A stretch of 64,000 nucleotides of DNA, from positions 149,774-213,773 of the forward strand of contig CALSRB010000007.1 of NCBI GenBank assembly GCA_943788655.1. The letters run 5' to 3'. The notes under the pieces were generated by a model. That model ran no database searches. It was not told where the DNA came from and saw only the letters and a list, made by a program, of their open reading frames with translations. This stretch comes from Candidatus Poseidoniaceae archaeon. GTDB lineage: Archaea > Thermoplasmatota > Poseidoniia > Poseidoniales > Poseidoniaceae. Positions 3,132-44,700 of the stretch are shown here, in pieces. Position 1 is the first letter of the stretch; each line of letters opens with the position of its first letter. The position numbers and the translations under genes are program-made.

Positions 3132-5525
3132 TTAAGGCTGGAAATCTCCACCCATCTGCGGCCTTGGGTTGTCGCGCAAGTCAACGCCGAGTTCCCAGCG
3201 AAAATCTGGAACCTCGTCGGGTGCTGGCTGTGCATCCATGTAATGCCACCACCAGGGTGGGGCGCCGCGGAATCCAAAGCGCTCTTGAACACGATTGAGG
3301 TTCTCGCTTAGGTTTCTTCGGGCCCATTGACGCGGATGGTCTCTTCTCTGAAACACTTGGTAACCATGCTCCCGATCTTGCTCTTCATAGCCTGCCAATG
3401 TCGCAAAGCGAAGCATCAAACGTCGTTCATGTGCATTGCGCAGGGTGAGATTGAGGTGGCAGTGTTCAAAGGAAACATCACCTCCGTCGGCGACTGCAAA
3501 CCGTACCTGTGAACCAATCGGTTGCAACAGCATAGCTTCCCAAACCCTTGGGAAGACCTCGCAGAACCGTCGTTCACCATCACGAACATCCCCAATTGGA
3601 GCGTCGCGTTCATCTTGTCCGTGGTTTCGCAAGAACATCCAGTCATTTCTTTGAAAATTTTCGTAGTATAACTCGCGTTGGCGACGACGGTTTCCTCGCC
3701 TGTCCGCTTCATCGGTCTCTTCACCACCTGTGGCTAAGACCGATAGACGCCACATCTTGACCAAAGCGTCGAGAGGATAGGGGCGTTTTGCCAGCCCTGC
3801 ATGTGCAACCTTGTTCCTCGCCTCGCTCGCAGACGTTCTTCTGTCTCGCTGGTGATTCCGATAATTTCGATGCTGAAGGTACTGCATAAACAATTCACCC
3901 CGTCCCAACGCTTCGGCTTCGTCAAACTCTGGGCCGTTGCGCCCGCGCTCTTCAACCCAAGTTGGGGCGTTCAGGCCTGTATATCGACGAACTGCATCGA
4001 GAAGTTGGAGGTATGATGCTTGGTCCATCATGGCTTTTTGAACATCATTGATGAGATGGGGGAAACCCATAGGGGCGTTGTGGGCCAGTTCATTCAACAA
4101 GGAATTGACCTGGACGCTGCTTCCGACATCGTCGATCAATGAAAGCACGACAGTTGCGATTGTATCGCCCAACGGGACCGTTGAGTGGAACCGCCCTTGG
4201 TGAATACAAACATCTGACGACCTCTTAGGGCCCAACGAGGTGAGCAACTTGATCCTGAATGGTGATGCATGAGCTCCTGGTTCGACTGTTACTTCATAGA
4301 AATGGCCGACGCGTCCGACCACCAAAATGTGCTTGCCTGAAATGAAAGCCCGTTCGGAATTAGCCTTGATGATCGAATTAAGGAACTCAATCGACCGTTT
4401 TAGAGGAGCGGAGATAAGTTTCGGAGAATTCGATCTTGAACTCCAGTTATGTTGCACTGCAAACAATACCTCTCCTTCGTGTGAAGTTAATGGGGAAAGC
4501 GAATGGGCGAGCAGTGAGGCCCAAATTGCAGGGTCATCGGGGATGTTTGTGTGACGAGACGAACCTGTTTTCGTCCGAACCCTCAACTTGATTTTCCCCC
4601 CTACAGTCCGGAGTGGTGGTTTCACTGGTGCGTTTACTTGGCGGGTGCTTCTGTAATTTTTCCAATGTGCAAGCCACGGGTAGGACGCGAGTTCGACCAG
4701 TCCATCTGGGTGATTGAGAAAGGCCTCTGCGATTCGAGCATCGAAGTCATTCCCTCGACTGAGACGTTGTTTGATGTCCCGCGACCAGGCTCCCAAAGGA
4801 TGGGACATGTGATGGGTTGGAGGAGGGATGTGTTCTTCAGCCATCCATCCAATCCATGTGAGAACTGAAAACACTGAGTGTCGACTTGGGCGAGCCGCCC
4901 GGCGCTCCATGCGCCGCCGTCGCAGGAAAGCATGCCTTTGTTCTCGGTCCTGGAAACCATCGACCATCTGCTCCTCGAGAACGGTTTTGGTGCATCCAAA
5001 AACGGTCAACAAACGACTCATGTCCCAACCATACCGCTGTTTTGGATCTGCGAGAACCCGGAGCAACGAAACCGTTGGGACTTGATGGGGAAGTTGGCGT
5101 CCATTCATGCATACATGCTGTTCACGGAATGAGAACGATGCACCATCGGACATCAGGAACCCTTTGTGCAAGACAAGGCGCTCCGCCGAGGTCAATTTGA
5201 TGCCTTCTTCAATGCGTTTAGCGATGGTCAAGAGTTCCTTCGCTGGGGCTGGTGCTTCCAAAACTGGATCCATGTCGCTCTCCGTTTTGGCCCAGTCAAC
5301 ATGGTCTGGTGTTGAAAAATGACGTTTGAATGCGTTCCATCGTTGCTTTGCGTTCGGATGTGGTCCACCAAGGGATTCTGCCACTTCTTCATGCAGCGAA
5401 TAGGGGATTTCGTAATCCCAATCCCTCTTCGGTGCGCCTTTCATCATTGAGGCGCAGAGCGCACAAGGCGCTATCGCTTTCTTTTCACCGCATACGGTAC
5501 AGACAATTGTGCCCCTCGCCGCCAT
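3132..5525 (-). CDS. large hypothetical protein with an N-terminal zinc ribbon (797 aa)
   Basis: ATG at 5525. The N-terminus CTVCGEKKAIAPCALC is a CxxC-x8-CxxC knuckle pair. The rest is Arg/Trp-rich (e.g. GAPPWWWHYMD near the C-terminus) with no motif I recognise. Its stop abuts the stop of the convergent gene (3131/3132). Confidence 0.7.
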   Translation of the reverse strand: MAARGTIVCTVCGEKKAIAPCALCASMMKGAPKRDWDYEIPYSLHEEVAESLGGPHPNAKQRWNAFKRHFSTPDHVDWAKTESDMDPVLEAPAPAKELLTIAKRIEEGIKLTSAERLVLHKGFLMSDGASFSFREQHVCMNGRQLPHQVPTVSLLRVLADPKQRYGWDMSRLLTVFGCTKTVLEEQMVDGFQDREQRHAFLRRRRMERRAARPSRHSVFSVLTWIGWMAEEHIPPPTHHMSHPLGAWSRDIKQRLSRGNDFDARIAEAFLNHPDGLVELASYPWLAHWKNYRSTRQVNAPVKPPLRTVGGKIKLRVRTKTGSSRHTNIPDDPAIWASLLAHSLSPLTSHEGEVLFAVQHNWSSRSNSPKLISAPLKRSIEFLNSIIKANSERAFISGKHILVVGRVGHFYEVTVEPGAHASPFRIKLLTSLGPKRSSDVCIHQGRFHSTVPLGDTIATVVLSLIDDVGSSVQVNSLLNELAHNAPMGFPHLINDVQKAMMDQASYLQLLDAVRRYTGLNAPTWVEERGRNGPEFDEAEALGRGELFMQYLQHRNYRNHQRDRRTSASEARNKVAHAGLAKRPYPLDALVKMWRLSVLATGGEETDEADRRGNRRRQRELYYENFQRNDWMFLRNHGQDERDAPIGDVRDGERRFCEVFPRVWEAMLLQPIGSQVRFAVADGGDVSFEHCHLNLTLRNAHERRLMLRFATLAGYEEQDREHGYQVFQRRDHPRQWARRNLSENLNRVQERFGFRGAPPWWWHYMDAQPAPDEVPDFRWELGVDLRDNPRPQMGGDFQP

Positions 5526-5556: not shown

Positions 5557-6600
5557 TTAAACGAGGTCTTCGAAGGCTCGAATTACCTCGAGGACATCTT
5601 GGTCGGTGACGTGAAGATGAACAACGATTCGACACGAATGAGGCCCAATGTCAAGCACGTCGATACCAGAAGCTGCCAGTGCATCCATCACATCGGTTGC
5701 TGAAATTTCAGAATCAAAGTAGACCATGTTTGTTTCAACGGTTGAAAGATCAACTGAGAACCCGTTGATTGCGTTGATTGCGGTAGCTAGTTGTGTTGCT
5801 CGACCGTGATCCTCTGCCATGCGATCAACATGATTGTCGAGGGCGTGCAAGCCCGCAGCTGCGAGCATCCCCGCCTGTCGCATGCCGCCGCCGAACATCT
5901 TGCGCCAACGGTGGGCTTGTGCGATGAAGGTGCCTGATCCGACGAGCACGGAACCAATAGGCGCCCCCAAGCCCTTCGACAAACAAATCGAAATCGAATC
6001 GTACTCGCGAACCATGCGATCGAGCGGCGTATTGGTTGCCACAGATGCGTTGAAGATCCGAGCACCGTCCATATGAACAGCGCAATTGTTTGCTTTTGCA
6101 ACAACTGCGATTTCATCCAAGGTGGCTTGCGGATAGCATGCGCCGCCACCTCGATTTGAGGTGTTTTCAACGCAAACAAGCGTCCCGTCCGGATAATGGG
6201 AAAGAGAACCTGCTTGCTTACGAATTGCTCCTTGGACATCTTCAGGCCGCATGAGCCCTCCATGAACATCGACAAGAGCGACTGACGCCCCACAAAGCGC
6301 TGCGTATCCGCCGCCCTCGTAGATGTAGATGTGACTGTTTTTGGCCGTGATGATTTCATCGCCCGGTGAAGTGTGGCACCTCAATGCGATTGCATTGGAC
6401 ATGGTGCCAGAAGGTACGAACAACGCCGCTTCTTTGCCGCACATCTCTGCAACACGTCGTTCGAGTTGGGAAACGGTGGGGTCATCGCCCAACACATCAT
6501 CGCCAACAGCTGCGGTGTGCATTGCTTCACGCATGGCGGGTGTGGGTTGGGTGACTGTGTCTGAACGCAAGTCGATGCGGTCCGTAGAGTAGTGGCGCAT
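5557..6600 (-). CDS. ltaE: low-specificity L-threonine aldolase (PLP-dependent)
   Basis: It has the family hallmarks DLRSDTVTQPTPAMREAM, GDDVLGDDPTV, SGTMSN and the PLP-lysine block CLSKGLGAPIGS. The 347-aa length is typical. Confidence 0.9.
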   Translation of the reverse strand: MRHYSTDRIDLRSDTVTQPTPAMREAMHTAAVGDDVLGDDPTVSQLERRVAEMCGKEAALFVPSGTMSNAIALRCHTSPGDEIITAKNSHIYIYEGGGYAALCGASVALVDVHGGLMRPEDVQGAIRKQAGSLSHYPDGTLVCVENTSNRGGGACYPQATLDEIAVVAKANNCAVHMDGARIFNASVATNTPLDRMVREYDSISICLSKGLGAPIGSVLVGSGTFIAQAHRWRKMFGGGMRQAGMLAAAGLHALDNHVDRMAEDHGRATQLATAINAINGFSVDLSTVETNMVYFDSEISATDVMDALAASGIDVLDIGPHSCRIVVHLHVTDQDVLEVIRAFEDLV

Positions 6601-6640
6601 GAACTTGCGAGGCCCTCCCCCTTCATCAAAGCGGTGGGAG

Positions 6641-6988
6641 TCAGAGTAATTTCAGCGCACCCGTCAGTGATTCCAACTGGTGTTCTTCGCAGGGGCCGAG
6701 GGCTAAAATTGTGTACGAGCCGCTCGGAATTTGTGTGTGACCTGCGTCATGAACGCTTGCCGTAAGGACGTTGAGTTGCTTTGCTTCCTGTTCCAAGCGA
6801 GTGAGGTGGTCAGCATCATCACCTTTGACACAGATTTTTTTCTGTCCTGTAGCAAGCCACGCTTCTAGGTAGGCGGGGCTCTTTTCACCAGCATTCATCA
6901 CTGCTTTTACCGCTCCATGCCCGACCTGCGCGGCGATTTTTCCTTTACCCATCTTCAAACCATGATTGACGACAAACACCATTTTCAT
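6641..6988 (-). CDS. pth2: peptidyl-tRNA hydrolase, archaeal Pth2 type (paralog A)
   Basis: MKMVFVVNHGLKMGKGKIAAQVGHGAV ... VHDAGHTQIPSGSYTILALGP are the Pth2 signature blocks. The ORF is open to 7057, but the ATG at 6988 gives the usual size of about 115 aa. Confidence 0.85.
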   Translation of the reverse strand: MKMVFVVNHGLKMGKGKIAAQVGHGAVKAVMNAGEKSPAYLEAWLATGQKKICVKGDDADHLTRLEQEAKQLNVLTASVHDAGHTQIPSGSYTILALGPCEEHQLESLTGALKLL

Positions 6989-7071
6989 GGCCCCTTTTGG
7001 AATCTGCCCTGATGGACGAGGTGCTGTCATCTTGTGGATGAAGGAGCGGAGACCCATGTTTGGACGTAAGG

Positions 7072-7413
7072 TCAGTATGGTTTCAAATCTCCGACCAGCG
7101 CATCGATTGAGCGTCTTGGCCCGGGCCCAATTCCGAGCACCGTAATTGTGCCTGGCTCGACTTCCGTATGGCCTGCATCCTTGACCAAATGCATCACGAG
7201 GCCAGCCGTTTGTGCTTGGCCAGCAAGCATCTGCAACTCACTCAGATTTTCAGCCTTCAAGCAAATTTTACGCGCACCCGATTGGCGCCATCGCTCGACC
7301 AAGCGAGCCTGTAATTTCCGCGCTGCTAACGTGCATGACACGGCCGCATGGGCACATTGTACAGCCACTTTCCCTGACGAAAGTCGGAGGTCGTCGCGAA
7401 CAATCAGCACCAT
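7072..7413 (-). CDS. pth2: peptidyl-tRNA hydrolase, archaeal Pth2 type (paralog B)
   Basis: MVLIVRDDLRLSSGKVAVQCAHAAV ... VKDAGHTEVEPGTITVLGIGP has the same blocks as paralog A. The ORF is open to 7464, with alternative ATGs at 7431 and 7440. Confidence 0.8.
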   Translation of the reverse strand: MVLIVRDDLRLSSGKVAVQCAHAAVSCTLAARKLQARLVERWRQSGARKICLKAENLSELQMLAGQAQTAGLVMHLVKDAGHTEVEPGTITVLGIGPGPRRSIDALVGDLKPY

Positions 7414-7423
7414 TGTGGGAGCT

Positions 7424-8083
7424 TCAGGCATCGATGCCATGACGCTCCACCACTGCCCGTTCAATTGATTCCAATGAAGCCTGCTCGTTCAAAATTGAAC
7501 TGAACCATGCGCCAAACCAAACTGCAAAGGTGAGGTTGCCCAGTGCATGAAGCAGGTCAAATGGGAGACCATTGGCTAAGTAGAAGAGGAAGTCAATCGC
7601 ACCAAAGGTTCCATCGAGGATCGAGAAAGAGACCACGAAACCGAAGATGAAGGCGGAACCGAGAGATGCGAAGCAGGTTCGAGTTGCGTTGTATGTTCCA
7701 TCAACCACCAATGAAAGCCGAGAGCCAAGCACTGCGACCATGGCCCATCCGCCTGCTTGGAAGAGAGTCCACCACCCGTCGCCCATGAAGAAATTGGAAA
7801 GCATGGTGACCATGACGGCAAAGGCTGCCCCACGGCGGGCGCCAAGTTGGGCACCGACCAATAAACAAGCCACCGTAACAGGCTGAATGTTTGGCAGCGG
7901 TTGCATCACAACTCGAATCAATGACACGCTGACCACGAGGGTCGCCATAAGAACGACATCATGGACTGAACGACGGTTTGGTCCAGCCAATAGCCAGAAG
8001 GCAGCACCCAAAAGGAGCACATCCAGAACCAAGCCCATTGTGGGTGAAAGTTCAGGGCCGTGCGTGCCGAGGGCTTGGAACAT
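7424..8083 (-). CDS. polytopic membrane protein, ECF-transporter S-component-like (tentative)
   Basis: About 220 aa and almost entirely hydrophobic helices (5-6 TM), with small-residue-rich helices (GAQLGARRGAAFAV, FMGDGWWTLFQAGGW). The family call rests on size, topology and the neighbouring DUF4430-like protein. ATG at 8083 chosen. Confidence 0.35.
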   Translation of the reverse strand: MFQALGTHGPELSPTMGLVLDVLLLGAAFWLLAGPNRRSVHDVVLMATLVVSVSLIRVVMQPLPNIQPVTVACLLVGAQLGARRGAAFAVMVTMLSNFFMGDGWWTLFQAGGWAMVAVLGSRLSLVVDGTYNATRTCFASLGSAFIFGFVVSFSILDGTFGAIDFLFYLANGLPFDLLHALGNLTFAVWFGAWFSSILNEQASLESIERAVVERHGIDA

Positions 8084-8115
8084 AGTTCGACCCACCAGCC
8101 CCCACGATTTGAGGC

Positions 8116-9828
8116 TTACCTCGATTCCACAGGCGACCATTCAACTCTTGTCGTTGAATCAATCGTGGAATAATCGGATGCGAGCGTTGCCAAACGTCCG
8201 TCAAGGGTGTATTCCCAGCCTTCGCCCGTTTCCCCATCAAAGGACAGGACATAGGTACCGATTCGCGTGGCGTCAGTTTCGATTTCCACGCCGAGTTCTT
8301 CACAGGCAGCGAGCGTCAAATCGAGCGCATTGGTATAGCCTTCGAAACCGCCAGCAGCACGCACCTCACCTCCAATTGTGATCGAGACAATCTGCGTTCC
8401 TCGCCAAGATTCATTCCACGAAGGATCCCATTCTTCGTCATTGGACTGGGGGCCTAACTCATCGATGGTTTGGGACCACTGGATTGCGACTTGATCAATC
8501 ACAAGCAGGCCGATGAGAAGCATGTAGACGCTCAAGAATTTGAGCACCGATGCCCCGTTTCCGCGCAAGAGTTGCACACCTGCACCCCCCAGTGCAAGGT
8601 AGAGAAGGAACACTGTCCCTTGAGCAACCCAGTCGAATGCCGCAATATTTTGCTCAGGGGCTGGTTCCTCAACGTTGGTTGTCGTTGCATGCACATAGAC
8701 AACGCCACCATCGCTTCCAAAGGCCAGTATCTCCCCATTGGTTGCGCTTGATGTGAAGCCAGGTGCTGCTGTGGCATATCCATCCGCACCTGTGGTGACC
8801 ATTTGCACTTGGAGGCGACCATATTCTGTGATGTTGACAAGGCCCCACCCCTGTTCATTGCCGTTGTAAGGGAGCATGTAGTGCCCGTCTTGAACCAATC
8901 CGATTTCCCCATTGGAAAGAAACGGTACTCGGTCCACTTCCTCGCAAATAAGCGAGCAGGAAAACGATCGAATCGCCTCGGAATCAAAGGCCAGTACGAA
9001 AGCACCAGCAGTAACTGGGATGCCCGGAGATGGACCAATTGGTAGGCTTTGAATGGTTGACAAGTTTGCCGAATCGAGAACATACATCGTGCTTGATTGC
9101 TGGCCTTGAAGTTGAACCAAAATTCCCGCCGAGGTGAGAATTGGTGCATGCCGGATTTTTCCATCCCCTAAGTCCACAGATCGCGTTGTCCCGTTCGTTG
9201 AAACGCCCCACAGTACACCTGATTCATCGCCCAAGAAGTATTCCTCATCGCCTACGACCACTCCATTTCGCCAACCAAGTCCAGTGGTGGCTTCCATGGT
9301 CATCGAACCATCCGAAGCACACAGGGACACGAGACCGGTACGTGTTGGCACGACAATCTGATCCTCGTCAACAGCCATCACCCCAGTTACGCCCCAGGTC
9401 ACCTGCTCTGTTTCGTAGGACCATAGGAGGGTTCCGTCGTTTGGTGAACGTGCTTCAACACTGCCATCAGACCAGCCGATCATCATCATTTCAGGCCAAG
9501 CGCCACACGAGCCGTTGCCTGCCGTGACGTGCAACAGCGGTGCCATGTCGTGATGGGTAGAATGTGCATTGGACTCACTCCACACCAACTTGCCTTCGAG
9601 GGTAAAGGAGGCAACTGTAGGGGCCGAACTTCCACCCCAAGAAGCAGAGGTGCGAACGAACAATCGTTCGCCTGCAAAAAGAGGTGCTGTGGTGATGTAT
9701 GCATCGCCAAAATCATGACTCCATTGCAGGGTAAAATCTTCTTGGAAGGAAGAAGATTCTGCTTGAACTGGAAGGGTTGGAAGCAAAAAGAGAACAAGGG
9801 CGCCAACAAGTAGCAGGCGGAATCGCAT
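8116..9828 (-). CDS. secreted PQQ-like beta-propeller protein with two TM helices and a C-terminal transcobalamin-like (DUF4430-like) domain
   Basis: Signal peptide MRFRLLLVGALVLFLLPTLPVQA. There are repeated propeller-like strands (EGKLVWSES, DGTLLWSYE, SGVLWGVS) and two TM segments (GTVFLLYLALGGAGVQLL, FLSVYMLLIGLLVIDQV). The C-terminal approx. 100 aa, ...GTYVLSFDGETGEGWEYTLDGRLATLASDYSTIDSTTRVEW, matches the GW-Y-x-NG...Y...D-x-W pattern of DUF4430. Confidence 0.55.
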   Translation of the reverse strand: MRFRLLLVGALVLFLLPTLPVQAESSSFQEDFTLQWSHDFGDAYITTAPLFAGERLFVRTSASWGGSSAPTVASFTLEGKLVWSESNAHSTHHDMAPLLHVTAGNGSCGAWPEMMMIGWSDGSVEARSPNDGTLLWSYETEQVTWGVTGVMAVDEDQIVVPTRTGLVSLCASDGSMTMEATTGLGWRNGVVVGDEEYFLGDESGVLWGVSTNGTTRSVDLGDGKIRHAPILTSAGILVQLQGQQSSTMYVLDSANLSTIQSLPIGPSPGIPVTAGAFVLAFDSEAIRSFSCSLICEEVDRVPFLSNGEIGLVQDGHYMLPYNGNEQGWGLVNITEYGRLQVQMVTTGADGYATAAPGFTSSATNGEILAFGSDGGVVYVHATTTNVEEPAPEQNIAAFDWVAQGTVFLLYLALGGAGVQLLRGNGASVLKFLSVYMLLIGLLVIDQVAIQWSQTIDELGPQSNDEEWDPSWNESWRGTQIVSITIGGEVRAAGGFEGYTNALDLTLAACEELGVEIETDATRIGTYVLSFDGETGEGWEYTLDGRLATLASDYSTIDSTTRVEWSPVESR

Positions 9829-9833: not shown

Positions 9834-11864
9834 TCACTCCATCTTGCTTTGAATGGCTGCTCGTAAAAGAGCACTAACGACCTTTCCGTCCGCCGCGCCC
9901 ACCGTTTGCATGACAACGCCCATCAGAGGGCCCATTGCACCCATACCGCGTTCTTTGACGAAATCTGAGCGTTCTTCGACAATGGTTTGAATGGTTGCAG
10001 CAAGATCGCCCTCATCTGCTGGCTTGTAACCGTTGGCTTCACCATAGGCTGCGATTTGCTCGAGCGTTGGTTGCTGTCCAGCAAACGCTGCAATGATGTC
10101 GTTCATCGATTCTCTTGTGATCTCACCTTGCTCTTTGACCTTGAGAACATTTGCACACAATTCTGGATGCGCTTCATCGTTCTCCAATACCACGCTCGCC
10201 CAACCTTTGTGAGGCATTTCGCCAACATGATCCACGTAGATGTCATCAAGTTCGCGTGCTACGAGTTGCTTTGCTTGGTCTGATGAAACATCGTAGCCAG
10301 CCATACGTTCCTCCCGCTCTTGGTCGCTCATTGGAAGACTCAACATCGTGGATTGCCATCGATCTGAATCAATGACGATTGAAGGGACATCGGTTTCAGG
10401 GTACATCCTCGCACCGCCCGGCAATGGTCGCATTGGAGAAGTTGTTCCATCATCTGGTGCGCCTTTCTTGACGACTACATTACGGACTTCTTGCGGGATC
10501 CTATGCCAAGCCCTTCGAGCGCGCTGAAGAACGCTTTCAAGGGCCAGTTCGGCCTGCCATTGGGGTGCGAGGCAAAGAATGAATCCGTCTTTGGGAGTTA
10601 ATGAAAGTGCGCTACGAACATCATCGACGTGCTCTTGTTCGATGCCGTAAGCTGGAAGTTCGTCTGAATGAAAAACGCCCTTGACACCGGCGAGTTTGGC
10701 AGCGCCGGCAAGTTCTCGACCAAGTCGTGGCAGTTGAGCGCCCTCCTTGTCAAGTTCCTTGATGCCAATCTTGCCATTGAGGCCCGCCAATGGCAGCCCA
10801 AGCATAACATGACCTTTCGAACGACCGCCTTTGACCATTTTCGACTCGCATGAATCGAAAGAAGGTGAAACATCAACGAGTCTGAGTGGTAGATGTTCTG
10901 AAACGGCAGCTGCAATTGAAGATTCCAATTCAGCCTCGTCACTTCGTCGATCTGGTGGGAGTGGGGCGAGGTCAAGCATGCTCCGCAATTCATTCGCCAG
11001 CCGGTAGAAATGCAACTGTCGAGACATTTCCAACCGGATGATGCGAGGAATCCAGTTGAGATCTTGACACCCTTTGATTTCAACTCGGTCACCACAAGCC
11101 AATGACACGTTGAGATCCTGTCGGATGCTACCAAGGCCTCGACGCACCTTTCGGGTTTGCCGCAGCACTCGACCAAGCGCCATTGAGGTGACTTTGGCGT
11201 GTTCTGGCGATGTGACATCGGGTGCTGTTGCGATTTCAATGAGAGGCAATCCCAAGCGGTCGAGGTTGTAGATGACCTGATCACCGTTGGCAGTGGAAAG
11301 GGTGTCTAACTTTCGAGCGCTGTCCTCTTCCAAGCAAAGCACATCGATGCCTACAGGGCCTCCGTCTGTTTGCAACGTCCCGTCTGTAGCGATGAGGGAG
11401 GTTCGTTGGAACCCGCTTGTGTTTGAACCATCGACCACTGTTTTTCTCATGGTTTGAAGCAAGGAAACGGGCTTTGCCTCGAGAAGCGCTGAGACCGTCA
11501 ATGCGATTTGGATGGCGTCTTCATCGTGGTCAAGTGGTGGCTGGTCGTCGAGTTCAATCAGTCCAGCATTGGGGCTTTGAACATAGACGAAGGATCGGTT
11601 TCGGCGAGATTCAAACCGTGCAGCAATGTCGATTGCACCGCCTTCTCCACGAGCAGGACGAAGCTTTCGCTCGAAGCGCTTCCAATCGGATGGAACGGTT
11701 TCAATGGTGATGTCATAGAGAAGTCCTGGTTGACGGGAATGGAGTTTCCCGGTCGCCAATTGCTGGTGCACCTCAATGCCGCACATGAAGCCAAGTTGCT
11801 CAGGAACGAGGGCCGAAGCATCTGCAACTTCACCGACAGGTTCAGTGGTATGAGGTTCGGCCAT
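9834..11864 (-). CDS. gatE: Glu-tRNA(Gln) amidotransferase subunit E
   Basis: CGIEVHQQLATGKLHS, VVDGSNTSGFQRT, LEEDSARK and a C-terminal YqeY-like tail are typical of archaeal GatE. ATG at 11864 (the ORF opens with TTG at 11891). Confidence 0.9.
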   Translation of the reverse strand: MAEPHTTEPVGEVADASALVPEQLGFMCGIEVHQQLATGKLHSRQPGLLYDITIETVPSDWKRFERKLRPARGEGGAIDIAARFESRRNRSFVYVQSPNAGLIELDDQPPLDHDEDAIQIALTVSALLEAKPVSLLQTMRKTVVDGSNTSGFQRTSLIATDGTLQTDGGPVGIDVLCLEEDSARKLDTLSTANGDQVIYNLDRLGLPLIEIATAPDVTSPEHAKVTSMALGRVLRQTRKVRRGLGSIRQDLNVSLACGDRVEIKGCQDLNWIPRIIRLEMSRQLHFYRLANELRSMLDLAPLPPDRRSDEAELESSIAAAVSEHLPLRLVDVSPSFDSCESKMVKGGRSKGHVMLGLPLAGLNGKIGIKELDKEGAQLPRLGRELAGAAKLAGVKGVFHSDELPAYGIEQEHVDDVRSALSLTPKDGFILCLAPQWQAELALESVLQRARRAWHRIPQEVRNVVVKKGAPDDGTTSPMRPLPGGARMYPETDVPSIVIDSDRWQSTMLSLPMSDQEREERMAGYDVSSDQAKQLVARELDDIYVDHVGEMPHKGWASVVLENDEAHPELCANVLKVKEQGEITRESMNDIIAAFAGQQPTLEQIAAYGEANGYKPADEGDLAATIQTIVEERSDFVKERGMGAMGPLMGVVMQTVGAADGKVVSALLRAAIQSKME

Positions 11865-11909
11865 GAGTCCACCCAAGCGTTCATCCTTCAAGATTCAAAC
11901 CCATGAACA

Positions 11910-14042
11910 TCAAGGGATTCCATGGGTGTCATAGCCGCCTGGACGGAACAGACGACCTTCTTGATGGAACTTCTCGAGAATATCTTCTGCTGTGTTTCTG
12001 TCAATCTTGTGGCGTTCAGCTTCGTTGAGCACATCATTGTGTTGAGCAATGCCGTTGTTGTCCACAGCAAGCGTGGACACGATGTTGAACATTGACTTCT
12101 CCCGGTTGCGTGCCGTGCCCTTTTGTCCTGTTTGAAGCGCTGTTTCATCGAAGTTTCCGCCCATGAGATCTTCTCGCCAGAGTCGTGTCAGCCGGATGGC
12201 TCGTTCTGCGTCTTCCAATGTCGCCACTTGTGAGAGGCGAATCCGCGCGCTGGCCTCAGCCAACCGTGCCAATGCTTCGAGGGAACGGGCGGTGATGGCT
12301 ACCGTGTCGGAAAAGTCACCAACTTGCTTACGAGTTTCGACATAGAAATTTACAATTTTCTCGCGCGCCTCGGGAATCATCGATGGATGAATACTTCGTT
12401 TTGCATAGGCCACATACTTTCGAATTAAATCTCGCGAAAGGACTTCGCCATGTGCATCAGATTTCTTGACGCCTGCCTCAGCCGCTGACTTCGATGGATC
12501 TGGTGCTGAGCCTTCATTCACCAGCAATTCACTGACGCCAAGCAATCGAGTGTCGATGATGTGCTTCGCAATCTTTGCATCCTTTTCCATTTCTGGGTCA
12601 TCGGTCAACAACCAAATTACGTCAAATCGAGATACAAGAGGTGGAGCGAGGTTGATTTGTGCCGTGAAAGGTACTTCTGAAACCGGCTCAAAACGACCGC
12701 TTTTGGGGTTCGCTGCAGCGAGAACGGCGCATCGAGTTCGAAGGCTTGCGTTGATACCCGCTTTCGAAATGGAAATTTTCTGTTGTTCCATGGCTTCGTG
12801 CATGCTGGAACGATCACCTTCGTTCATTTTGTCGAATTCGTCAATCGCTGCCAATCCTAGATCGGCAAGAACAAGCGCACCGGCTTCGAGTGTCCAGCGG
12901 CCATCTGCGGCAGCGTCTTGCACCGCTGCTGCCGTGAGACCTGCTGCTGAAGCTGACTGGCCTGAAGTGAACCGTCCACGTGGCGAAATATCGGCCATGT
13001 AGTTGAGAAGTTGCGATTTCGCAACACCGGGGTCCCCCATGAGGAGGATGTGTAGGTCGCCGCGATTTCGGGTTCCATCAGCGTTGAGACGGGCAACACC
13101 GCCAAACAATTGGAGCATAAGCGACCGCTTGACCATCTCCATTCCAAAGATAGAGGGTGCGATGCTGTTGGTGAACACATCGTAGATGTCTGGACGTCGA
13201 GCGAGTTCCTTAATCTCTAATTCTTCATCCTCGGTGATGACGATTTCTTCGAGCGGAATGTTTTGACGTTCAAGGGAATGGATTCGGAGAAAAATATCGA
13301 AAACTGGTGTGTCTTTTCCTCCTTTGCGTTGGGAACGAATGAACAACACACCATTGGCCTTGACGCGGTCACCGGGATTGAGTTTCCCAGCAAGGTCATG
13401 TTCGACAATGCAAAGGATTCGTTCTGGTTGAATTCCACCCTTCATTTGTTCTGGCAATTCTTGCAGTTCAACGAATTGTGAATTGATGAGAATGGAGTCC
13501 TGTTGCTTCAATTCAAACCGAGTTTGACGCTTTGCACGACCGCAACCGCCGTCGATTTGTTGGCATTCAATTGGCTCAATCAATTCTTGTTCGTTCGGCT
13601 GGTTGATGACCATCGTGTGCCCGCAGGCCACACATTCGAAGGTTGCAGCGTAAATCCGTGGACGGACGCCCGTGATTTTAGTCGCAACGGCGTCAATTGC
13701 CAACATATGGCTAATGTCGTCAGCACGCAATTGTGAGACCGTCCGAATCTGATCGCTTGGGAGGTGAACGATGCGAACAAAGGGGTACATGTTGCTGTGT
13801 CCCGCATCGATCAAGAATTGACGAAGGGCTTGGTTTGAGGCGTGAAAGTGGAGTTCTGGATGCTCCACAATGTCATGTGCGAATTCGTGATCGAACCCCT
13901 CAATCACACGGTATGAAACTTCAAGGGATTGTTCGTCAGGCCACATCTGTGCAAGGTTATGCACCGCCTCAGCGAAGTGATCCTGAATGAGGGATGTCCA
14001 GCGAGCGGGAAGGTCAAATTCTTGCAACATTTTGAACACCAT
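11910..14042 (-). CDS. mcm: MCM replicative helicase
   Basis: Zinc motif CVACGH...CQQIDGGCG, Walker A GDPGVAKSQLL, Walker B AAIDEFDKM and arginine finger SRFDVIWLL. There is no intein-sized insertion. ATG at 14042 (TTG at 14084 also possible). Confidence 0.95.
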   Translation of the reverse strand: MVFKMLQEFDLPARWTSLIQDHFAEAVHNLAQMWPDEQSLEVSYRVIEGFDHEFAHDIVEHPELHFHASNQALRQFLIDAGHSNMYPFVRIVHLPSDQIRTVSQLRADDISHMLAIDAVATKITGVRPRIYAATFECVACGHTMVINQPNEQELIEPIECQQIDGGCGRAKRQTRFELKQQDSILINSQFVELQELPEQMKGGIQPERILCIVEHDLAGKLNPGDRVKANGVLFIRSQRKGGKDTPVFDIFLRIHSLERQNIPLEEIVITEDEELEIKELARRPDIYDVFTNSIAPSIFGMEMVKRSLMLQLFGGVARLNADGTRNRGDLHILLMGDPGVAKSQLLNYMADISPRGRFTSGQSASAAGLTAAAVQDAAADGRWTLEAGALVLADLGLAAIDEFDKMNEGDRSSMHEAMEQQKISISKAGINASLRTRCAVLAAANPKSGRFEPVSEVPFTAQINLAPPLVSRFDVIWLLTDDPEMEKDAKIAKHIIDTRLLGVSELLVNEGSAPDPSKSAAEAGVKKSDAHGEVLSRDLIRKYVAYAKRSIHPSMIPEAREKIVNFYVETRKQVGDFSDTVAITARSLEALARLAEASARIRLSQVATLEDAERAIRLTRLWREDLMGGNFDETALQTGQKGTARNREKSMFNIVSTLAVDNNGIAQHNDVLNEAERHKIDRNTAEDILEKFHQEGRLFRPGGYDTHGIP

Positions 14043-14126
14043 AGGACGTTGTTTGCCAACCGAACTTTCATTGTGTAGCGCCAACCGTTTATAGGCGTAT
14101 CTTCAAACACTTGCCACCCCCTCATT

Positions 14127-21464: not shown

Positions 21465-24400
21465 TTAGTCTTCCCAAACAGCCCAGTCTTCCCAGCCTTC
21501 TTCTCGGTACCACCAAACGCCTTCTTCATCTTCCCACCACTCAGTGCCATTTTCATCGACACTGATGCCGTCGTCATCTTCGCCTTCCTCGCTTGTTTCT
21601 TCGTCTTCGAGTGCTTCCTCAAGGTCTTCGACTTCCGTCTCGTCATAGGACTCGACTGTGTTGTTGTCGAATTCATCGAAGAGGCTGGGCCGTTGATCTT
21701 TCGGACCTTCGATGTCGTCCAGTGACCGTCCTTCATTGTGCAATTGATCGAGTGACTTACTGGTTGGTTTGGTTGGTTTTTCGATGATTTCGGGTTCAAC
21801 ATCATCAATTGATTCTGCATACCAATCGTCTTCTTCATCGTCAGACTTTCGCAGCAGGATGACACCTGCGCCACCTGCGATGAGCGCAAGGATGCCAATG
21901 ATGCTTCCAATGATGAGTGGGGCATTGCTCTTGGTGCCATCTGAATCGGTGTCGACTGGGGTGTCAACTTCCGGTGCTTCGCCAAGCGTCCATTGCAATT
22001 CACCTTCAGTGCTTGCTGTGGGCGTGGTCATGGAGTCACACTGATTGGCTCCGCCGAGTTCCGAGCATGAGAAGAAAACAACGTAGCCCACACCCTGAAT
22101 TCCTGGGAACAAACCATCGGATGGCCCATTGCGAACCGGCGAGAATTCCACTTGGACTGAGCCCTCCGCAGAAATGGTGATGATTGGCGCACTGCCCACA
22201 CCAAAAGGCGCCTCAAAGGTGACTGGCGGAGGGGTTGTTGGCGTCACTTTCCAAGAAAACCCGAGGAACACATCAAACGGATTCGGATTGGTGATGGTAC
22301 ACATGATGGGGGCATCGGTGCCATCGTCAATCCAAGGGTAGGTCGCTGTCCCACAATCAACAGCGCCTGGTAGTGTGGCGTCTGGGAATGTGGGCTCTTG
22401 TGTGGTGTTGGTGTCGTTCGTACCGTTGCCACCTGTGGTTTGATTGGAGCCCGTATCTGGGCCACCGGTGAAGGTGAACATGAGTGGGTTCATTGAAGGG
22501 ACAATCCATGATTTTGATGCATCGGAAGTGAGGACAAGTGTGTCGGTCGCATTGGCCGTTCCCGAGAGGATGATTTGCCCACCTTTGACTTCCACATCGC
22601 CTGTGCTGGTGACATTACCGCTCGCATCCTTTTGTTCCCATGTGTATACAAGGCCCTCAAGGTATGTGTTCTGAGTTGGCAATTCAGCAACGATGTTCAC
22701 TTCGAGGTCGAAGACGCCCTCGTCGTCAAGATTGAGTTGGGTCCCCTGCGTGGTAATGTCTGCTCGCAGGAGCCCAAGACCTTGGAGGGTCAAGTTCGCG
22801 GGTCCAACCGGTTGCATGGTTGGCGATCCGGTCGTGCCGAGGTATTCGATCGTCATCGAGGCGCTGTCAAAGAAGGTGATGAACGTCCCGCCAAGTTCGG
22901 TCAGGTCTTCTGCTTCGATGGCTTGCCACACTCCTGATGAGTCGGTCGTTCCAGAGAGTTCAACATCGACCCCTGATGCCTCAATGGTGAGGCTTACGAG
23001 TTCCCCTTCAAGGGGCACACCGTCTGCAGTCAACGTGATGTTGAGGTGCAGGGAATCGAGCGCGCTCAGGCCAAAACCACCATCATCGTACGTACTTGAG
23101 GTCGAAAGATCGTACTCGATCAAGGCCGTGCGTTGGGAATTGTTGAGAGAGATCACGGGTCCGAGGGCGCTGAACGAAGTGGTTGCGTTTCCGTACTCAT
23201 CGAACGCAACAACTGCAGCATAGTAATCTGTGCCGTCGATGATTGTGAGGCCTTCATCAACCGTTGAAAGAACCATGATTTGGTTTTCAGTCGAGTGTTC
23301 AATGGTGGCAATCGGTTGCAATACGTCAATTTCTTCAATGGCTTGGGTTTCGAGGTAGACCCCGTATTCAACAGCGCCATCAATGGAAATATTCCAAGAA
23401 AGATCGAGCGAACCCCCCTCATCACCAGGGGTGTCAACGAAATTGAAACCTGCCACTGCGGCCGGGGGGGCCGGGAAAGGAACGGTGACCGTTAGAGGGG
23501 CAGACATGTTGCTCGTCACGCCATAGGAATGCAGCGAGCGAACGCCGTAGACATACGAAGTTCCATGGTCAACTTCGCCATCAACCGTCGTATTGGCGCC
23601 TGATGTTGTGTAAGGGGAGGTCAAGTCAAACGAAACACCGGGTGCTGCCCTAAACACTTCGAATTCAATCAAGTCATCACCGAATTCAATCATGTCTTGC
23701 CATTCGAGTTGAACACGATCTGAAGTTAACTCTGTCACAGAAACGACAGGGGTTGGGGGCAGCGAAATGTTCGGCGCACCGGGGCTGTATTGAGCAACCA
23801 GTCCGGACACGGAAAAGACGCCAGAGAGTGTTGAATTCACTGGAAGAGTGACAACAAAGTTACCAACACCTGCCGTTTGTTGTTGGTTGATGATGTTGGT
23901 CAGGTTTCCTGCCGAAAACGGATTGTTTTCAACAATGAAGTCTGCATCGTAGCCGATGTCCATCGAAGAGAGGTTGAAGGTCCCATCAGCCGTGTTTGTG
24001 AAAGCAAAGCTGACGCTGGAGAGACGCACGCCATAGCCATCTGCGTTGTATGGCAACGCATTCATCAGCGGCGAGAGTCTTGAGGTCATGTTGCCCAATG
24101 GGTCGAGGATGTACAGTGGTTCCATGCCGTACGCTGCATCACCTGCATAGCCTTCGACACCAAGGTCATCCTGGCCATCATCATCAATGTCCATTGTCAC
24201 ATGTTGCCAGCTGGCGATGAACAATCCGCTGGAAAGTTCACCTGCAGCCACGATGTGTTCAACAACGCCATCACCGTTCATGTCGATTGCTTTGACATTG
24301 GTTGGAATGGACCATGGTTGGACCACGGAGGTGCTCACCCCCACTGCGGTTGAGTTGAGAGCGTACGCTGTGAGGTTCCCCTCCACCGTCAGTGCGCTTC

Positions 24401-25736
24401 CATCGCTTGATCCGCCGAAAGGCACAACGAGCGAAGCAAGCCCGTCGCCATCGTGATCAAACACAGAGGCATTGTTCAGTTGAACGGTTGTTAGGTGGTC
24501 TGTAGTGTTCCACTGCGAGCCATCGTTTTGAGCGACCGTGTAGCCCAGTTGATTGCTACCAATGAAATCGATATCGCCGTCGCCGTCGATATCTCCTGCA
24601 ATTATATCCGATTCAAGACCATCGAAGTGGTTCGGGTTTTCGCTGATGCCGCTCCCGTTGGTCCACCCAAGCGGGGTGCTGTGCCCAAACAGGTCGGTTA
24701 CAACCACTGAGAAGACTGTTGAGTTTGCAGCAAAGTGTCCTGATACCATCGAAACAAGCGTGGTAGGGTTCGCGCTGTTGTTCATGTTCACAGATTGCGT
24801 GAGATTGGCTGCAAAACTGCTTGTCTTGCTGTTGTAAGTGCGCAGAGCAAACGTGCCGCCTGTGTGAATTGAGACGAGGTCGGCATAACCGTCCAAATCG
24901 AAATCACCGACAGAGGCTGAGATGCTGTTGCTGTAAAGAGAAATGCCTTGTGCTGCGCCGATTGCCCCTGTTGAGGCGTTCATAATGTGCACACATGCAA
25001 GATCAGAGCCATAGGCAAAGGCAACCAAATCATCATGGCCGTCACCATTGAAATCGCCCGTAGCAACCTCAGAAGATCCGGCGCATGTTTGAACCCATGA
25101 AGAGGTGTTCAATCCAGCGTTCGACGTCCAATCGACAATCATGAGGGCGGAGTTGAAACTTGTAGTGGCGGAATCGCTCGAAAGCACCACCACCTCGGGT
25201 AATGTATCGTTGTCCACGTCCCCTGAAGTGTAGTCGTTCACTGCACCAATTGGTAGCAATCCGCCATTGACATCAGGAGCGAAGGAGGCGTTCACTTCGG
25301 CCGTATCAATCGACGCTCCAAACGGCAAGAAGATTGGCGGGGAACTGACCATACCTGTCGAATGGAAATCGACTGATGTATTGCCGTTGAAGAAAGAATT
25401 CTGATGGCCGAGGTCCCCGTAACCAGACCCTTCGAAGGCCCATTCTTTGACGCCGTCTTGACCAATGTCAATATACACTTGCCCAGGTGTTGCGACTTCA
25501 TCTCTAGCGCTTACCAAAAAAGAAGCTGAGTCGAAGGTGACGTTTCTTGGAACTTCGATGCCGAGGGATGTATCGACCTGCCCACCCGTCAAGGTGAGCG
25601 TCGGGCTAGCTTGTCCACCGTCAAAGGTACTCACAGTGCCGCTTGTCGGATTTGCAGCAGCCGGCATGAGTGCAACTGTTTGGAGGAGAAGGAGGAGAAC
25701 GAGCAAGAATGAGCCTGTGCGGTTCGGGTGTTCCAT
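21465..25736 (-). CDS. giant surface protein with FG-GAP/integrin-alpha-like repeats, a single C-terminal TM and an acidic Trp-rich tail
   Basis: Signal peptide GSFLLVLLLLLQTVALMPAAA. FG-GAP calcium loops GDFNGDGHDDLV, GDFDLDGYADLV, GDIDGDGDIDFIG, DHDGDGLASLV, DMNGDGVVEHIV. There are FN3/Ig-like segments, the TM LIIGSIIGILALIAGGAGVILL and a 128-aa tail ending TEWWEDEEGVWWYREEGWEDWAVWED. Confidence 0.8.
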   Translation of the reverse strand: MEHPNRTGSFLLVLLLLLQTVALMPAAANPTSGTVSTFDGGQASPTLTLTGGQVDTSLGIEVPRNVTFDSASFLVSARDEVATPGQVYIDIGQDGVKEWAFEGSGYGDLGHQNSFFNGNTSVDFHSTGMVSSPPIFLPFGASIDTAEVNASFAPDVNGGLLPIGAVNDYTSGDVDNDTLPEVVVLSSDSATTSFNSALMIVDWTSNAGLNTSSWVQTCAGSSEVATGDFNGDGHDDLVAFAYGSDLACVHIMNASTGAIGAAQGISLYSNSISASVGDFDLDGYADLVSIHTGGTFALRTYNSKTSSFAANLTQSVNMNNSANPTTLVSMVSGHFAANSTVFSVVVTDLFGHSTPLGWTNGSGISENPNHFDGLESDIIAGDIDGDGDIDFIGSNQLGYTVAQNDGSQWNTTDHLTTVQLNNASVFDHDGDGLASLVVPFGGSSDGSALTVEGNLTAYALNSTAVGVSTSVVQPWSIPTNVKAIDMNGDGVVEHIVAAGELSSGLFIASWQHVTMDIDDDGQDDLGVEGYAGDAAYGMEPLYILDPLGNMTSRLSPLMNALPYNADGYGVRLSSVSFAFTNTADGTFNLSSMDIGYDADFIVENNPFSAGNLTNIINQQQTAGVGNFVVTLPVNSTLSGVFSVSGLVAQYSPGAPNISLPPTPVVSVTELTSDRVQLEWQDMIEFGDDLIEFEVFRAAPGVSFDLTSPYTTSGANTTVDGEVDHGTSYVYGVRSLHSYGVTSNMSAPLTVTVPFPAPPAAVAGFNFVDTPGDEGGSLDLSWNISIDGAVEYGVYLETQAIEEIDVLQPIATIEHSTENQIMVLSTVDEGLTIIDGTDYYAAVVAFDEYGNATTSFSALGPVISLNNSQRTALIEYDLSTSSTYDDGGFGLSALDSLHLNITLTADGVPLEGELVSLTIEASGVDVELSGTTDSSGVWQAIEAEDLTELGGTFITFFDSASMTIEYLGTTGSPTMQPVGPANLTLQGLGLLRADITTQGTQLNLDDEGVFDLEVNIVAELPTQNTYLEGLVYTWEQKDASGNVTSTGDVEVKGGQIILSGTANATDTLVLTSDASKSWIVPSMNPLMFTFTGGPDTGSNQTTGGNGTNDTNTTQEPTFPDATLPGAVDCGTATYPWIDDGTDAPIMCTITNPNPFDVFLGFSWKVTPTTPPPVTFEAPFGVGSAPIITISAEGSVQVEFSPVRNGPSDGLFPGIQGVGYVVFFSCSELGGANQCDSMTTPTASTEGELQWTLGEAPEVDTPVDTDSDGTKSNAPLIIGSIIGILALIAGGAGVILLRKSDDEEDDWYAESIDDVEPEIIEKPTKPTSKSLDQLHNEGRSLDDIEGPKDQRPSLFDEFDNNTVESYDETEVEDLEEALEDEETSEEGEDDDGISVDENGTEWWEDEEGVWWYREEGWEDWAVWED

Positions 25737-25907
25737 GGTGTTCACGATGTGACTGTGGGTGGACGCCCTTCAAGTTCCTTACGGCGAAGTTGGAGAGTAT
25801 ACGGGAAAAAGCGGTGTTCTCCTGTTGATTCAGGCGTGTTTGTATGTTGACGAGAATTCTAAAGGGTTATAGTACACAGGTTAGAACTAACAATTGAGGA
25901 GAACACC

Positions 25908-41794: not shown

Positions 41795-44700
41795 TCAAAG
41801 GTGGGTGAGGTCAATCTCGCCAAGGTCATCGCCGCCACCCTTGCGCATGCGAACCAAGAACAGAACAACGGCCACAGCAATCAAAGCGATGAGCAGAAGT
41901 GTCCCTGTTTCAAAGTCGTCTGTGTCCTCAACGGTTGTTCCTTCCATGGTATCAGGGATACCGTCGTTATCATCGTCTTGATCTGCAAAAAGCCAAGTTG
42001 TGATGCCGTCTGGGCAATTGACGTCATCCGGTTGCCCGTCGCCGTCCGTATCAATTGAAGCGCAAGCGTCCAAAGGATAGTCGTCCCGTGCATCCGGTAC
42101 ACCATCGTTGTCATCGTCGGTGTCTTCTTGATCTGGCCCACATGGATAGCCAATAGCGCTGTTGAACCACACATTGGTTTGTTGCGTGTAGGTGCATGAA
42201 GGAGTCCAGTCGCCGTCTGTGTCGAGTTGGGTGATTTCAAAATCCACTGCGTCGGAGGTTGAAGCGCCCAACGCATCGGTCACCTTTGCTTCGAGGACAT
42301 AAAATCCGTATGGAAGGTCGGTGATGTTGTACTGTGCTTCATTTGGCCCGCGTAGGACTTCTTCACCGGATGCATCGGTAATGATCCATTCAATGGTGAG
42401 TTCATCGATTGAATCAAGGTCATCGCTGTAGGTCACTTGAGCATTCAACGGGGTGGTTTCCATGACCCTTTGACCTGAATACGGCGTTGTGATTTCAACG
42501 ATGGGAGCGCCGTTGAGAGCCATGAGGATCACGATCGAGGTATTCATGCCTTCCGTGTAATTGACGGTTAAGGTCTGGATTGGAAGCCCTGGTGCCGTAG
42601 CTTGTAGGTTTACCGAAGTCAATGTGGTCGTCGAAGACTCATCTGCAATGATGATTGGGAGTTCAACCAAGACAGAAGTGCCTTCGACCTGTGTCGAATG
42701 TCCCGAAGTGTGACCTGTCGTTCCAATCGCAAAGATCACCTCAATCGGTACGCCGTTGACTTGAGCATCGAAGTTGAAGGTGGTCCACATGTGAATTGCT
42801 GCGCCATCGTATGCTGATGTCTGAGTCGCCATGACGTCGACAAGGTTGACGACGATCGCACCTGAAGCCGCCACCTCTCCTATGATTGAGCCGCCTTCAA
42901 TCCGAGCCGAATAATGGTCTGCAGAAAGCACAACTGATGCCAAGATATCGGGGGAACGGAACACAACTGGGGCGATGGACCCGTCGTCAACATCTGCGTG
43001 CAAATCAATCGCAACAGCGTAGTTTGCAGCACTCAGGCCTTCGACGATGAGGCTATCCATGGTGCGACCATGGTGGCTTGAAAAGGCGGTTCCTGTGCCT
43101 TCACCGTTCAAAATGAGGCCGTCAATAATTCCAGCTGTTTCATCAAAGTCGACAGCGGGTGCGCCCGACACTTGAACTGTGTTCAAATCGATAAAGCGAT
43201 TGTTGATTCCTGCAAGGCCGCCCATTGACCCAACGGTTCCATTCAGATCGGACACTGTAAAGCCTCCATCAATGGATTCCAGCCAGCCAACGTAGCCGCT
43301 TCCATTGAACGCAGTTGCATCGATGTTGTTCATGGAACCGGTCACGGCTGTGACTTCAAATCCATGCGTCATTTCTCCGCTGAAGGAAAGGCCATCAACA
43401 TCCACAACGGATTGACGAGCCCACAATCCAACGCCATTGCAATTGACAAGGGAGACATCTGAAAGGATGAGGGTTCCTTCAGTAGCGATGGTATTGATGC
43501 ACCCGCTTCCGGCATCATAGAGAGTGCTGTCGGTGAGTTCGACCGTTGCGTTGCTACCGCTTGTAATGACAATCAGTGGGTCGGCGCCAGAGGAGCGTGC
43601 AAGTTCAGTTCCAGCTGCGCTCAGTTGACCGAATTGGGAGACGGTCAAAGCGGGTGAGGCTTCCAGCACCGATGAGGCTGAGAGATCAATCGTTGAGGAA
43701 GTCAGGGAGCCAAGGTGCAACCCACCCCAGCGAGCGCCTTGACCAGTAGAAGAAAGTGTAGCATCGCCAACATCCATAGCGCCGTCCACGGTGATTGTGC
43801 GGCCTTCTGAGATTCGCACAGATACACCGTCATCGATGCTCAGTGTTCCTGTTTGGCTGACGGTGAGGTCGGCATCGAGGAAGTAAGGGCTCCATTGTGA
43901 TTCCAAGATTAGCCACTCATCGAGCGAGCCGCCAGTAATTCTTGAAGCCATGAAGGTGTGATCCAGAGAGGTTGACGAATCCCAGGTGACAAAGTCTGTA
44001 AACGAGCCAATTTGAAGATTGACGTTCTTGATTCCGCCAGTTGTTTCACTGCTGTCTGTGACTTCACGAGCCGTAGCAGTGGTGCTTAGGCGGCCTTGGT
44101 CGTCTGTTGAAGCAACCGAGCCGTCCACGGAAATGAGCGCACCGGCAACCGGTTCGCCTTGGTCAAGAACCCTGATGTTAAGTTCCGAGAGGACATTCAG
44201 CGACGCTCCTGTGAGCGCCGTGACTGTTCCCGAAATCGAGCCTGCCACGAGGTCATATTCGCAACCGGGTTGTAAGACAAGGTTGCCGTTGATGTGAACA
44301 CGTTCAGAAGTTCGAAGGCTCTGACAAGCCCATGATACGTTTCCTATGACGTCGAATCCGTCTTCACTGTTTGACGACAACATGCTGTCAAAGCCCATTG
44401 AGAAACGATGTGCGGCAATCGTCGAAGCATCGCCCATCAGTTGAGCGCTGCCTTGGACACTCACCAAGCCGTCTGTAGGAAGAAGGAGGGTCGTGCTGTC
44501 GAGTTGGAGGCCGCTACCGGTTTCAAGGGTTAAATCGCCAGTGAGGACGTGGGGGCTGCCGTCAGGGCGGGCGCCGAGATAGACAACTTGACCGCTCGTG
44601 ATGGTCCAGTCGCCCTGAGGAATCACCGGAACTTGAACAGACTGGCCCATGCTTCCCCCGTAGAGGGTGACCCTCACGCCGGCACCGCCAAGACTGACGT

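Follow-up and report, generated by a model that had tools for sequence, protein, structure and literature searches.

BtuM, a protein with the S-component fold of energy-coupling factor (ECF) transporters, transports vitamin B12 (cobalamin) without an ECF module, and some BioY proteins are likewise solitary. In Bacteroides, the seven-bladed surface β-propeller lipoprotein BtuG captures B12 as part of an uptake system. The kind of system closest to the one considered here is also known: SLBB proteins with a transcobalamin-like domain were predicted to supply CbiO/CbiQ-type transporters with scavenged B12 (Burroughs et al, 2007, PMC1796856), and a characterisation of the S-component CbrT followed (Santos et al, 2018, PMC5997447). 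ECF-CbrT of Lactobacillus delbrueckii, the cobalamin-specific complex in PDB entry 6FNP, transports B12 in an ATP-dependent manner, and CbrT binds cyano-, hydroxo- and methylcobalamin as well as cobinamide with nanomolar affinity (PMC5997447). Here we analyse a 64,000-nucleotide stretch of DNA (the window) from a Poseidoniaceae (Marine Group II, MGII) archaeon, the assembly of which is 2.07 Mb and 97% complete, and describe two adjacent genes, A and B. Sequence comparisons and structural models indicate that they probably constitute a two-gene corrinoid (B12) capture-and-uptake module, the archaeal counterpart of a bacterial pair formed by a DUF4430 protein and CbrT. A preliminary description of the window had proposed such a module, and the fold of A, the homology of B to CbrT, the conserved gene order and the B12-related gene content of the genome support that proposal.

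Transcobalamin-like domain of gene A and CbrT relationship of gene B

The gene A product's C-terminal domain was modelled separately from the rest of the protein (predicted local distance difference test score, pLDDT, 88) and compared exhaustively with known structures by VIA-align. The top match was haptocorrin (4KKJ), with Z 12.6 and a root-mean-square deviation (rmsd) of 1.6 Å over 92 residues, followed by bovine transcobalamin (2BB6, Z 11.6), the DUF4430 structure 3U7Z (Z 11.6), the human transcobalamin β-domain (5NO0, Z 11.6) and intrinsic factor (2PMV, Z 11.3). These five chains superpose on the model with rmsd values of 1.6–2.0 Å over 88–92 residues, and the next match is a generic β-grasp protein with Z 7.7. 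Foldseek returned the same set with E-values of 4e-5 to 2.5e-3 and probability 1.00, and everything else had E ≥ 0.04. Sequence identity between the domain and the solved transcobalamin-type structures is 9–17%, and the link to transcobalamin is drawn from Pfam and fold comparison. At the level of the family, 32 of 39 homologues of A match Pfam DUF4430 (PF14478) at E ≤ 0.01, with 4e-8 as the lowest value, and hhalign of the domain against Firmicutes DUF4430 lipoproteins gave a probability of 91.8%. The motif GEGWEYTLDG...DY...VEW is present in the domain, with G537, W538 and W564 invariant in the 39 homologues. A profile of the domain had a single match among PDB sequences, a corrinoid/Fe-S protein with an E-value of 0.8, which we took as chance. 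Based on the fold matches and the family-level DUF4430 matches, we place the domain within the SLBB clade that Burroughs et al defined as transcobalamin-like (PMC1796856). It resembles the β-domains of transcobalamin, intrinsic factor and haptocorrin, and 3U7Z, in its fold, its GW...(D/N)G...W pattern and its predicted extracellular placement. It differs from transcobalamin in that no α/α-toroid partner is present in A or nearby; A instead carries a β-propeller and anchors the domain through a membrane hairpin.

The remainder of gene A accounts for this tether and propeller (Table 1). In the full-length AlphaFold model (mean pLDDT 83, predicted TM score 0.70), an all-β region spans residues 32–382 and an α/β domain spans residues 479–566, and the two hairpin helices between them are joined by a two-residue turn beside an arginine. 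Because the protein has a signal peptide and an even number (two) of membrane helices, the prediction is that propeller and C-terminal domain both lie on the outer face. Pfam PQQ_2 is matched by 36 of the 39 homologues, and the family profile matches BamB and quinoprotein dehydrogenases with E-values of 2e-7 to 1e-6. In a Foldseek search with the full-length model, BamB and the designed eight-bladed propeller Cake8 rank first (TM-score 0.81 on the target, rmsd 4.2 Å), and all of the 50 matches listed are propellers. A role as a dehydrogenase dependent on pyrroloquinoline quinone (PQQ) was set aside, as the match is to the propeller scaffold alone, the E-values are weak and the size is that of BamB. 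Many tryptophan, arginine, histidine, acidic and cysteine residues are invariant in the propeller across the homologue alignment, which suggests a conserved functional surface. Examples of invariant positions are R226-H227-x-P229, W186-R187-N188 and E202.

The preliminary description had anticipated much of this architecture. Pfam, hydropathy and AlphaFold bear out its secreted PQQ-like propeller, two transmembrane helices and outer C-terminal domain; the pattern it had read as GW-Y-x-(N/D)G...Y...D-x-W is present and conserved; and its DUF4430 or transcobalamin-like assignment agrees with Z-scores of 11.3–12.6 and with the Pfam matches of the homologues. Its parallel with BtuG holds insofar as both proteins contain a surface β-propeller. 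However, the propeller of A is eight-bladed and BamB/PQQ-like, so the resemblance is a functional analogy only; BtuG is not among the 50 Foldseek matches listed for A, a search that included no dedicated comparison with BtuG.

Gene B matches Pfam DUF6580, a family of the ECF_trnsprt clan, with 32.6 bits, above the gathering cut-off of 27 bits. Its only match among PDB sequences is a 182-residue chain of 6FNP annotated as 'membrane protein', with an E-value of 8.8e-15 for the single sequence and 4.9e-29 over 156 residues for a profile of 31 Poseidoniales B sequences. Judged by its length, this chain would be CbrT. The motifs PNVQPVT, SN..G.G.WT..Q and FD..HA.GN are common to the archaeal B proteins and their Firmicutes homologues. 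RibU, ThiT, FolT and BtuM were not matched in the PDB sequence search, and BtuM is a functional analogue of B only. The sequence matches identify gene B as a homologue of CbrT, which makes the earlier reading of B as S-component-like more specific: it is a specific homologue of a B12 S-component established by experiment. A literature search on DUF6580 found no papers.

Bacterial counterparts and conservation across Poseidoniales

A search for relatives of gene B among 1.84 billion representative sequences gave 2090 clusters at E ≤ 1e-3, and 80 genomic loci were fetched. In all nine Firmicutes loci examined, a DUF4430 lipoprotein of 127–150 residues (69–83 bits) is encoded directly 5' of the CbrT homologue. 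An AdoCbl or Cobalamin riboswitch, as defined in Rfam, precedes the operon in six of the 12 bacterial loci scanned. At a Thermoleophilia locus the order is riboswitch, DUF4430, DUF4430, EcfT (CbiQ), fused EcfAA', CbrT-like protein and α/α toroid, and at a Sporolactobacillus locus it is riboswitch, α/α toroid, DUF4430 and CbrT-like protein. Many CbrT/DUF6580-like proteins elsewhere (for example P0308, P0384 and P0302) are 360–770 residues long and join an N-terminal S-component to an α/α toroid of the squalene-cyclase/prenyltransferase type. The transcobalamin α-domain belongs to the α/α-toroid fold class. Taken together, the gene pairs, riboswitches and toroid fusions show that a 'split transcobalamin plus CbrT' system controlled by B12 is widespread in bacteria, and the archaeal pair is a variant of it.

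In L. delbrueckii, cbrT lies in the cluster nrdJ-cbrS-cbrT-pduO (Santos et al, 2018, PMC5997447). We consider cbrS to be probably the DUF4430 gene, in which case the bacterial pair would be cbrS-cbrT. Compared with ECF-CbrT, the archaeal locus is alike in that B is homologous to CbrT, shares its motifs and is directly preceded by a DUF4430 gene, as in Firmicutes. It differs in having no EcfT or ECF module that we could find and no riboswitch in the window, in an N-terminal extension of roughly 35 residues on B, and in its DUF4430 partner, which is a 570-residue propeller-hairpin fusion rather than a lipoprotein of 130–150 residues. The preliminary description had found a fused propeller and transcobalamin-like architecture unfamiliar in archaea. 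The arrangement is indeed unusual, but it has a precedent, as Burroughs et al (2007, PMC1796856) had already recorded a β-propeller joined to a transcobalamin-like domain in a protein from Clostridium. As a predicted extracellular SLBB protein in a host apparently without B12 synthesis, A fits the B12-scavenging prediction made in the same work.

The distribution of the two genes was surveyed in 121 evenly sampled Poseidoniales genomes. Gene B was found in 120 of them, and a DUF4430 gene accompanies it in all three families of the order, so that the A-B synteny expected from the preliminary description is seen across the whole order. Among 59 Poseidoniaceae genomes, 58 contain full-length A; in 57 it lies directly 5' of B on the same strand, with alignment ends 34–66 nt apart, and the remaining genome (G068) has a 646-residue form about 160 nt 5' of B. 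Outside this family the partner takes other forms. Four Thalassarchaeaceae genera and the family f2 have, directly 5' of B, a short protein of 155–213 residues with an N-terminal anchor and a DUF4430 domain that scores 21.6–37.3 bits, four of the five scanned being above the DUF4430 gathering cut-off of 23.8 bits. The short form of genus g11 aligns with the hairpin and C-terminal domain of A and looks like A minus its propeller. In three other genera, propeller-DUF4430 proteins of 665–690 residues are encoded 0.8–2 kb 5' of B. At one locus (G041), no DUF4430 gene adjoins B. Because the partner varies in form yet its DUF4430 domain stays beside B, comparison of these proteins identifies a tethered DUF4430 domain and a CbrT-like protein as the constant unit, with the propeller as an add-on. 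The genomes with short forms (loci L025, L026, L027, L029 and L030) are small, at 1.3–1.6 Mb, and the propeller-less protein of L027 keeps the two-helix hairpin, which suggests that streamlining of the genome removed the propeller.

Gene order also bears on whether A has anything to do with cofactor uptake. The order MCM-gatE-A-B-pth2 is conserved as a whole neighbourhood, and synteny alone is therefore weak evidence that A and B act together: A could be a cell-envelope protein, such as a BamB-like scaffold or a polysaccharide tether, that adjoins B through housekeeping gene order. Burroughs et al also suggested that the propeller-type partners of SLBB domains may serve as surface tethers, and that archaeal SLBB proteins may scavenge some other metabolite (PMC1796856). 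We regard this explanation as very improbable, because adjacency of DUF4430 and CbrT genes recurs in unrelated bacterial neighbourhoods under B12 riboswitches, and because the DUF4430 part stays beside B even where the propeller is absent.

Two further observations were made in Thalassarchaeaceae. In one genus (locus L023), a gene for a 218-residue soluble protein without a Pfam match lies between the propeller-DUF4430 and CbrT-like genes, and a plastocyanin/azurin-type copper protein of 347 residues is encoded just upstream; the coordinates reported for this region are 3694-4350 (-) and 6496-7539 (-). In a genome assigned to the same family, a fragment of a Poseidoniaceae-like A (41% identity; G083:C6:98-1138) is found at the end of a contig other than that of the CbrT-like gene, and could be a binning artefact or the result of transfer.

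B12 requirement, haem and energy coupling

The genome encodes B12 enzymes, namely an IcmF-like fused mutase and, beside propionyl-CoA carboxylase, the small (B12-binding) subunit of methylmalonyl-CoA mutase with MeaB. It also encodes an adenosyltransferase of the PduO type. The ribonucleotide reductase was not counted as B12-dependent, as its NrdJ_Z match of 319 bits is under the 400-bit cut-off. No match over cut-off was found in the genome for CobS, CbiC or FecCD/BtuC. Thus the co-occurrence raised in the preliminary description, of B12 enzymes with absent cob/cbi genes, is seen for the cob/cbi markers that were searched (CobS and CbiC). Among 61 Poseidoniales genomes searched (this genome and 60 relatives), B12-binding domains are present in all 61 and CobS in none, and B12 auxotrophy of MGII has been reported (PMC9296465). 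Given this need for B12 and the lack of any match to synthesis markers or BtuC, the A-B module is the only recognisable B12 importer in the genome.

Several observations weigh against B12 uptake by this pair. The DUF4430 score of the window's own A protein, 14.1 bits (E 0.065), is under the gathering cut-off. Rfam detected no RNA element, and hence no B12 riboswitch, between positions 5000 and 15000 of the window, and no gene in the window next to A and B is related to B12, the flanking genes being gatE, MCM and those for Pth2. CbrT without its ECF module failed to rescue Escherichia coli (PMC5997447), which counts against the function of a solitary homologue. Finally, two observations point to haem: no HemB (ALAD, porphobilinogen synthase, PF00490) was found in this genome, and deletion and complementation have connected haem uptake with the lsa1836-1840 operon of Lactobacillus sakei, which encodes an S-component, EcfAA', EcfT and transcobalamin β-like and α-like proteins (bioRxiv 10.1101/864751).

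From these last observations it could be argued, as the main alternative to B12 uptake, that the module imports haem, or tetrapyrroles generally (haem and B12), rather than B12 specifically, into an organism unable to make any tetrapyrrole. HemB was found in only 11 of the 61 Poseidoniales genomes, and its presence varies even inside the genus (7/16), consistent with the listing of MGII as apparent haem auxotrophs (bioRxiv 10.1101/2021.01.11.426183). The L. sakei system also resembles the archaeal pair in combining an S-component with extracytoplasmic transcobalamin-like capture proteins, although it differs in that it brings EcfAA' and EcfT of its own and has the α-like part as a separate protein, as well as in its assignment to haem (bioRxiv 10.1101/864751). 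In contrast, CbrT, the closest characterised relative of B, binds cobalamin and, in the authors' competition design, was not inhibited by hemin (PMC5997447). The orthologous bacterial operons are under B12 riboswitches, and the transcobalamin β-domain is known to touch the nucleotide loop, which is absent from haem (PMC1796856). The occurrence of the module in 120 of 121 genomes, including the 11 that keep HemB, also fits the universal need for B12 better than the patchy loss of HemB. We therefore favour B12 as the substrate, on the basis of the bacterial riboswitches, the specific similarity to CbrT and the near-universal presence of the module in HemB-positive and HemB-negative genomes alike, and consider import of haem or of tetrapyrroles generally to be unlikely.

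For B12 import by A and B, the source of energy has to be considered as well. Pfam CbiQ/EcfT has no match in this genome and none over cut-off in any of the 61 Poseidoniales, whereas 10–11 of 14 control genomes were positive in the same search. In two Thalassarchaeaceae genera (8 of the 121 genomes), a protein of 650–670 residues is encoded between the A-like propeller-DUF4430 gene and B (L021:5575-7587 (+) and L022:3024-4985 (-)). It has 3–4 N-terminal membrane helices, two ATP-binding cassette (ABC) ATPase domains and a segment resembling the coupling helices of EcfT, ALRLVPRLERSARWRLATLSERG, features that could make it an ECF module in one chain; no EcfT/CbiQ match was found by Pfam in the N-terminal 250 residues of the 670-residue protein. 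The family can therefore be ABC-driven within the order, and this, together with the inactivity of CbrT alone in E. coli (PMC5997447), would suit a model in which B is an ordinary ECF S-component, its energising module is too divergent or distant to recognise and A is a mere accessory anchor. This model appears quite unlikely to us, as the genome contains no orthologue of the 670-residue protein, with nothing beyond generic ABC-domain similarity (≤ 38 bits), and CbiQ/EcfT is lacking from all Poseidoniales searched. Since no EcfT was found in the genome or its 60 relatives, gene B most likely works here as a solitary S-component, despite the behaviour of CbrT in E. coli.

Locus organisation, proposed uptake route and meaning for Marine Group II

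Both genes lie on the minus strand at the positions given in the preliminary description, and the 32-nt gap that it noted between them is exact (Table 1). An alternative in-frame GTG at 9837 would extend A to 573 residues, but its homologues begin at the ATG instead, and the length of B is the modal length of its homologues. A has 132 homologues, of which every named one is from Poseidoniaceae/MGII archaea, as is every named homologue of B. Two Pth2 genes and a threonine aldolase gene follow 3' of B. The Pth2 genes are tandem paralogues that each match Pfam PTH2 over the full length (E about 1e-38); where the first of them truly starts decides whether it overlaps the end of B. Elsewhere, the window contains three very large minus-strand open reading frames (ORFs), its AT skew is strongly negative at 56000–60000 (-0.26 to -0.29), and its GC content falls to 0.40 at 62000–64000, compared with about 0.53 elsewhere.

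Table 1 Coordinates of genes A and B, their predicted domains and other features of the window.
Feature	Position	Strand	Description
Gene A	8116..9828	-	570 aa from ATG; ORF call; signal peptide, propeller, membrane hairpin and transcobalamin-β-like domain
Signal peptide (A, aa 1-26)	9751..9828	-	Predicted; hydrophobic core, then VQA/ES; hydropathy peaks at 2.19 in aa 1-28; helix 2-15 in model
Propeller (A, aa 30-382)	8683..9741	-	Eight-bladed, BamB/PQQ-like; predicted extracellular
Transmembrane helical hairpin (A, aa 400-422 and 425-458)	8455..8631	-	Hydropathy and AlphaFold helices; short Arg-containing loop
DUF4430 / transcobalamin β-domain-like (SLBB) domain (A, aa 467-567)	8128..8430	-	Domain model, VIA-align, Foldseek, hhalign
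A-B spacer	8084..8115	-	32 nt; GGTGG Shine-Dalgarno-like motif 8 nt 5' of the ATG of B
Gene B	7424..8083	-	219 aa, ATG at 8083; CbrT-family (DUF6580) S-component-like membrane protein
gatE	9834-11891	-	5' of gene A
MCM	11910-14084	-	5' of gene A
Pth2 paralogue	7072-7464	-	3' of gene B
Pth2 paralogue	6641-7057	-	3' of gene B
Large ORF	21465-25745	-	1426 aa
Large ORF	41795-46519	-	1574 aa
Large ORF	48857-56956	-	2699 aa

In the uptake route that we propose, the outward DUF4430 domain of A would catch scarce dissolved cobalamin and pass it to B, which would topple or translocate it inward, where the PduO-type adenosyltransferase and the B12 enzymes would trap it. The membrane hairpin of A may hold the capture domains docked beside B. 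More speculatively, the propeller could stand in for the α/α-toroid half of transcobalamin and provide the second face of a ligand sandwich. Extending this idea, the propeller would in Poseidoniaceae have replaced the toroid half of a prokaryotic 'split transcobalamin'; the ligand, cobalamin or both cobalamin and haem, would be clamped between the propeller and the β-domain, which the hairpin joins, and handed straight to a CbrT-type carrier operating without any ATPase. This extension is tentative, and we think it unlikely. If true, it would describe an S-component transporter that depends on a binding protein and is free of an energy module, and the main tetrapyrrole gateway of very abundant marine archaea.

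The usual view of S-components is that they require an ATPase module and do without an extracytoplasmic binding protein. In the present case, as in many bacteria, the S-component is paired with a tethered binder of the transcobalamin-like kind, and in most of the order the search for an ATPase module found none. What is new in Poseidoniales is the joining of a propeller to a transcobalamin-β-like domain through a membrane hairpin, with a CbrT homologue as partner, no ECF module found and near-universal occurrence in the genomes sampled. We found no description of the B12 import route of MGII in the searchable literature, and the MGII papers checked are silent on the module. The A-B pair could also bear on the haem supply of these archaea. 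MGII are among the most abundant planktonic archaea, and they require B12 without producing it; the module described here offers a concrete candidate for its import.

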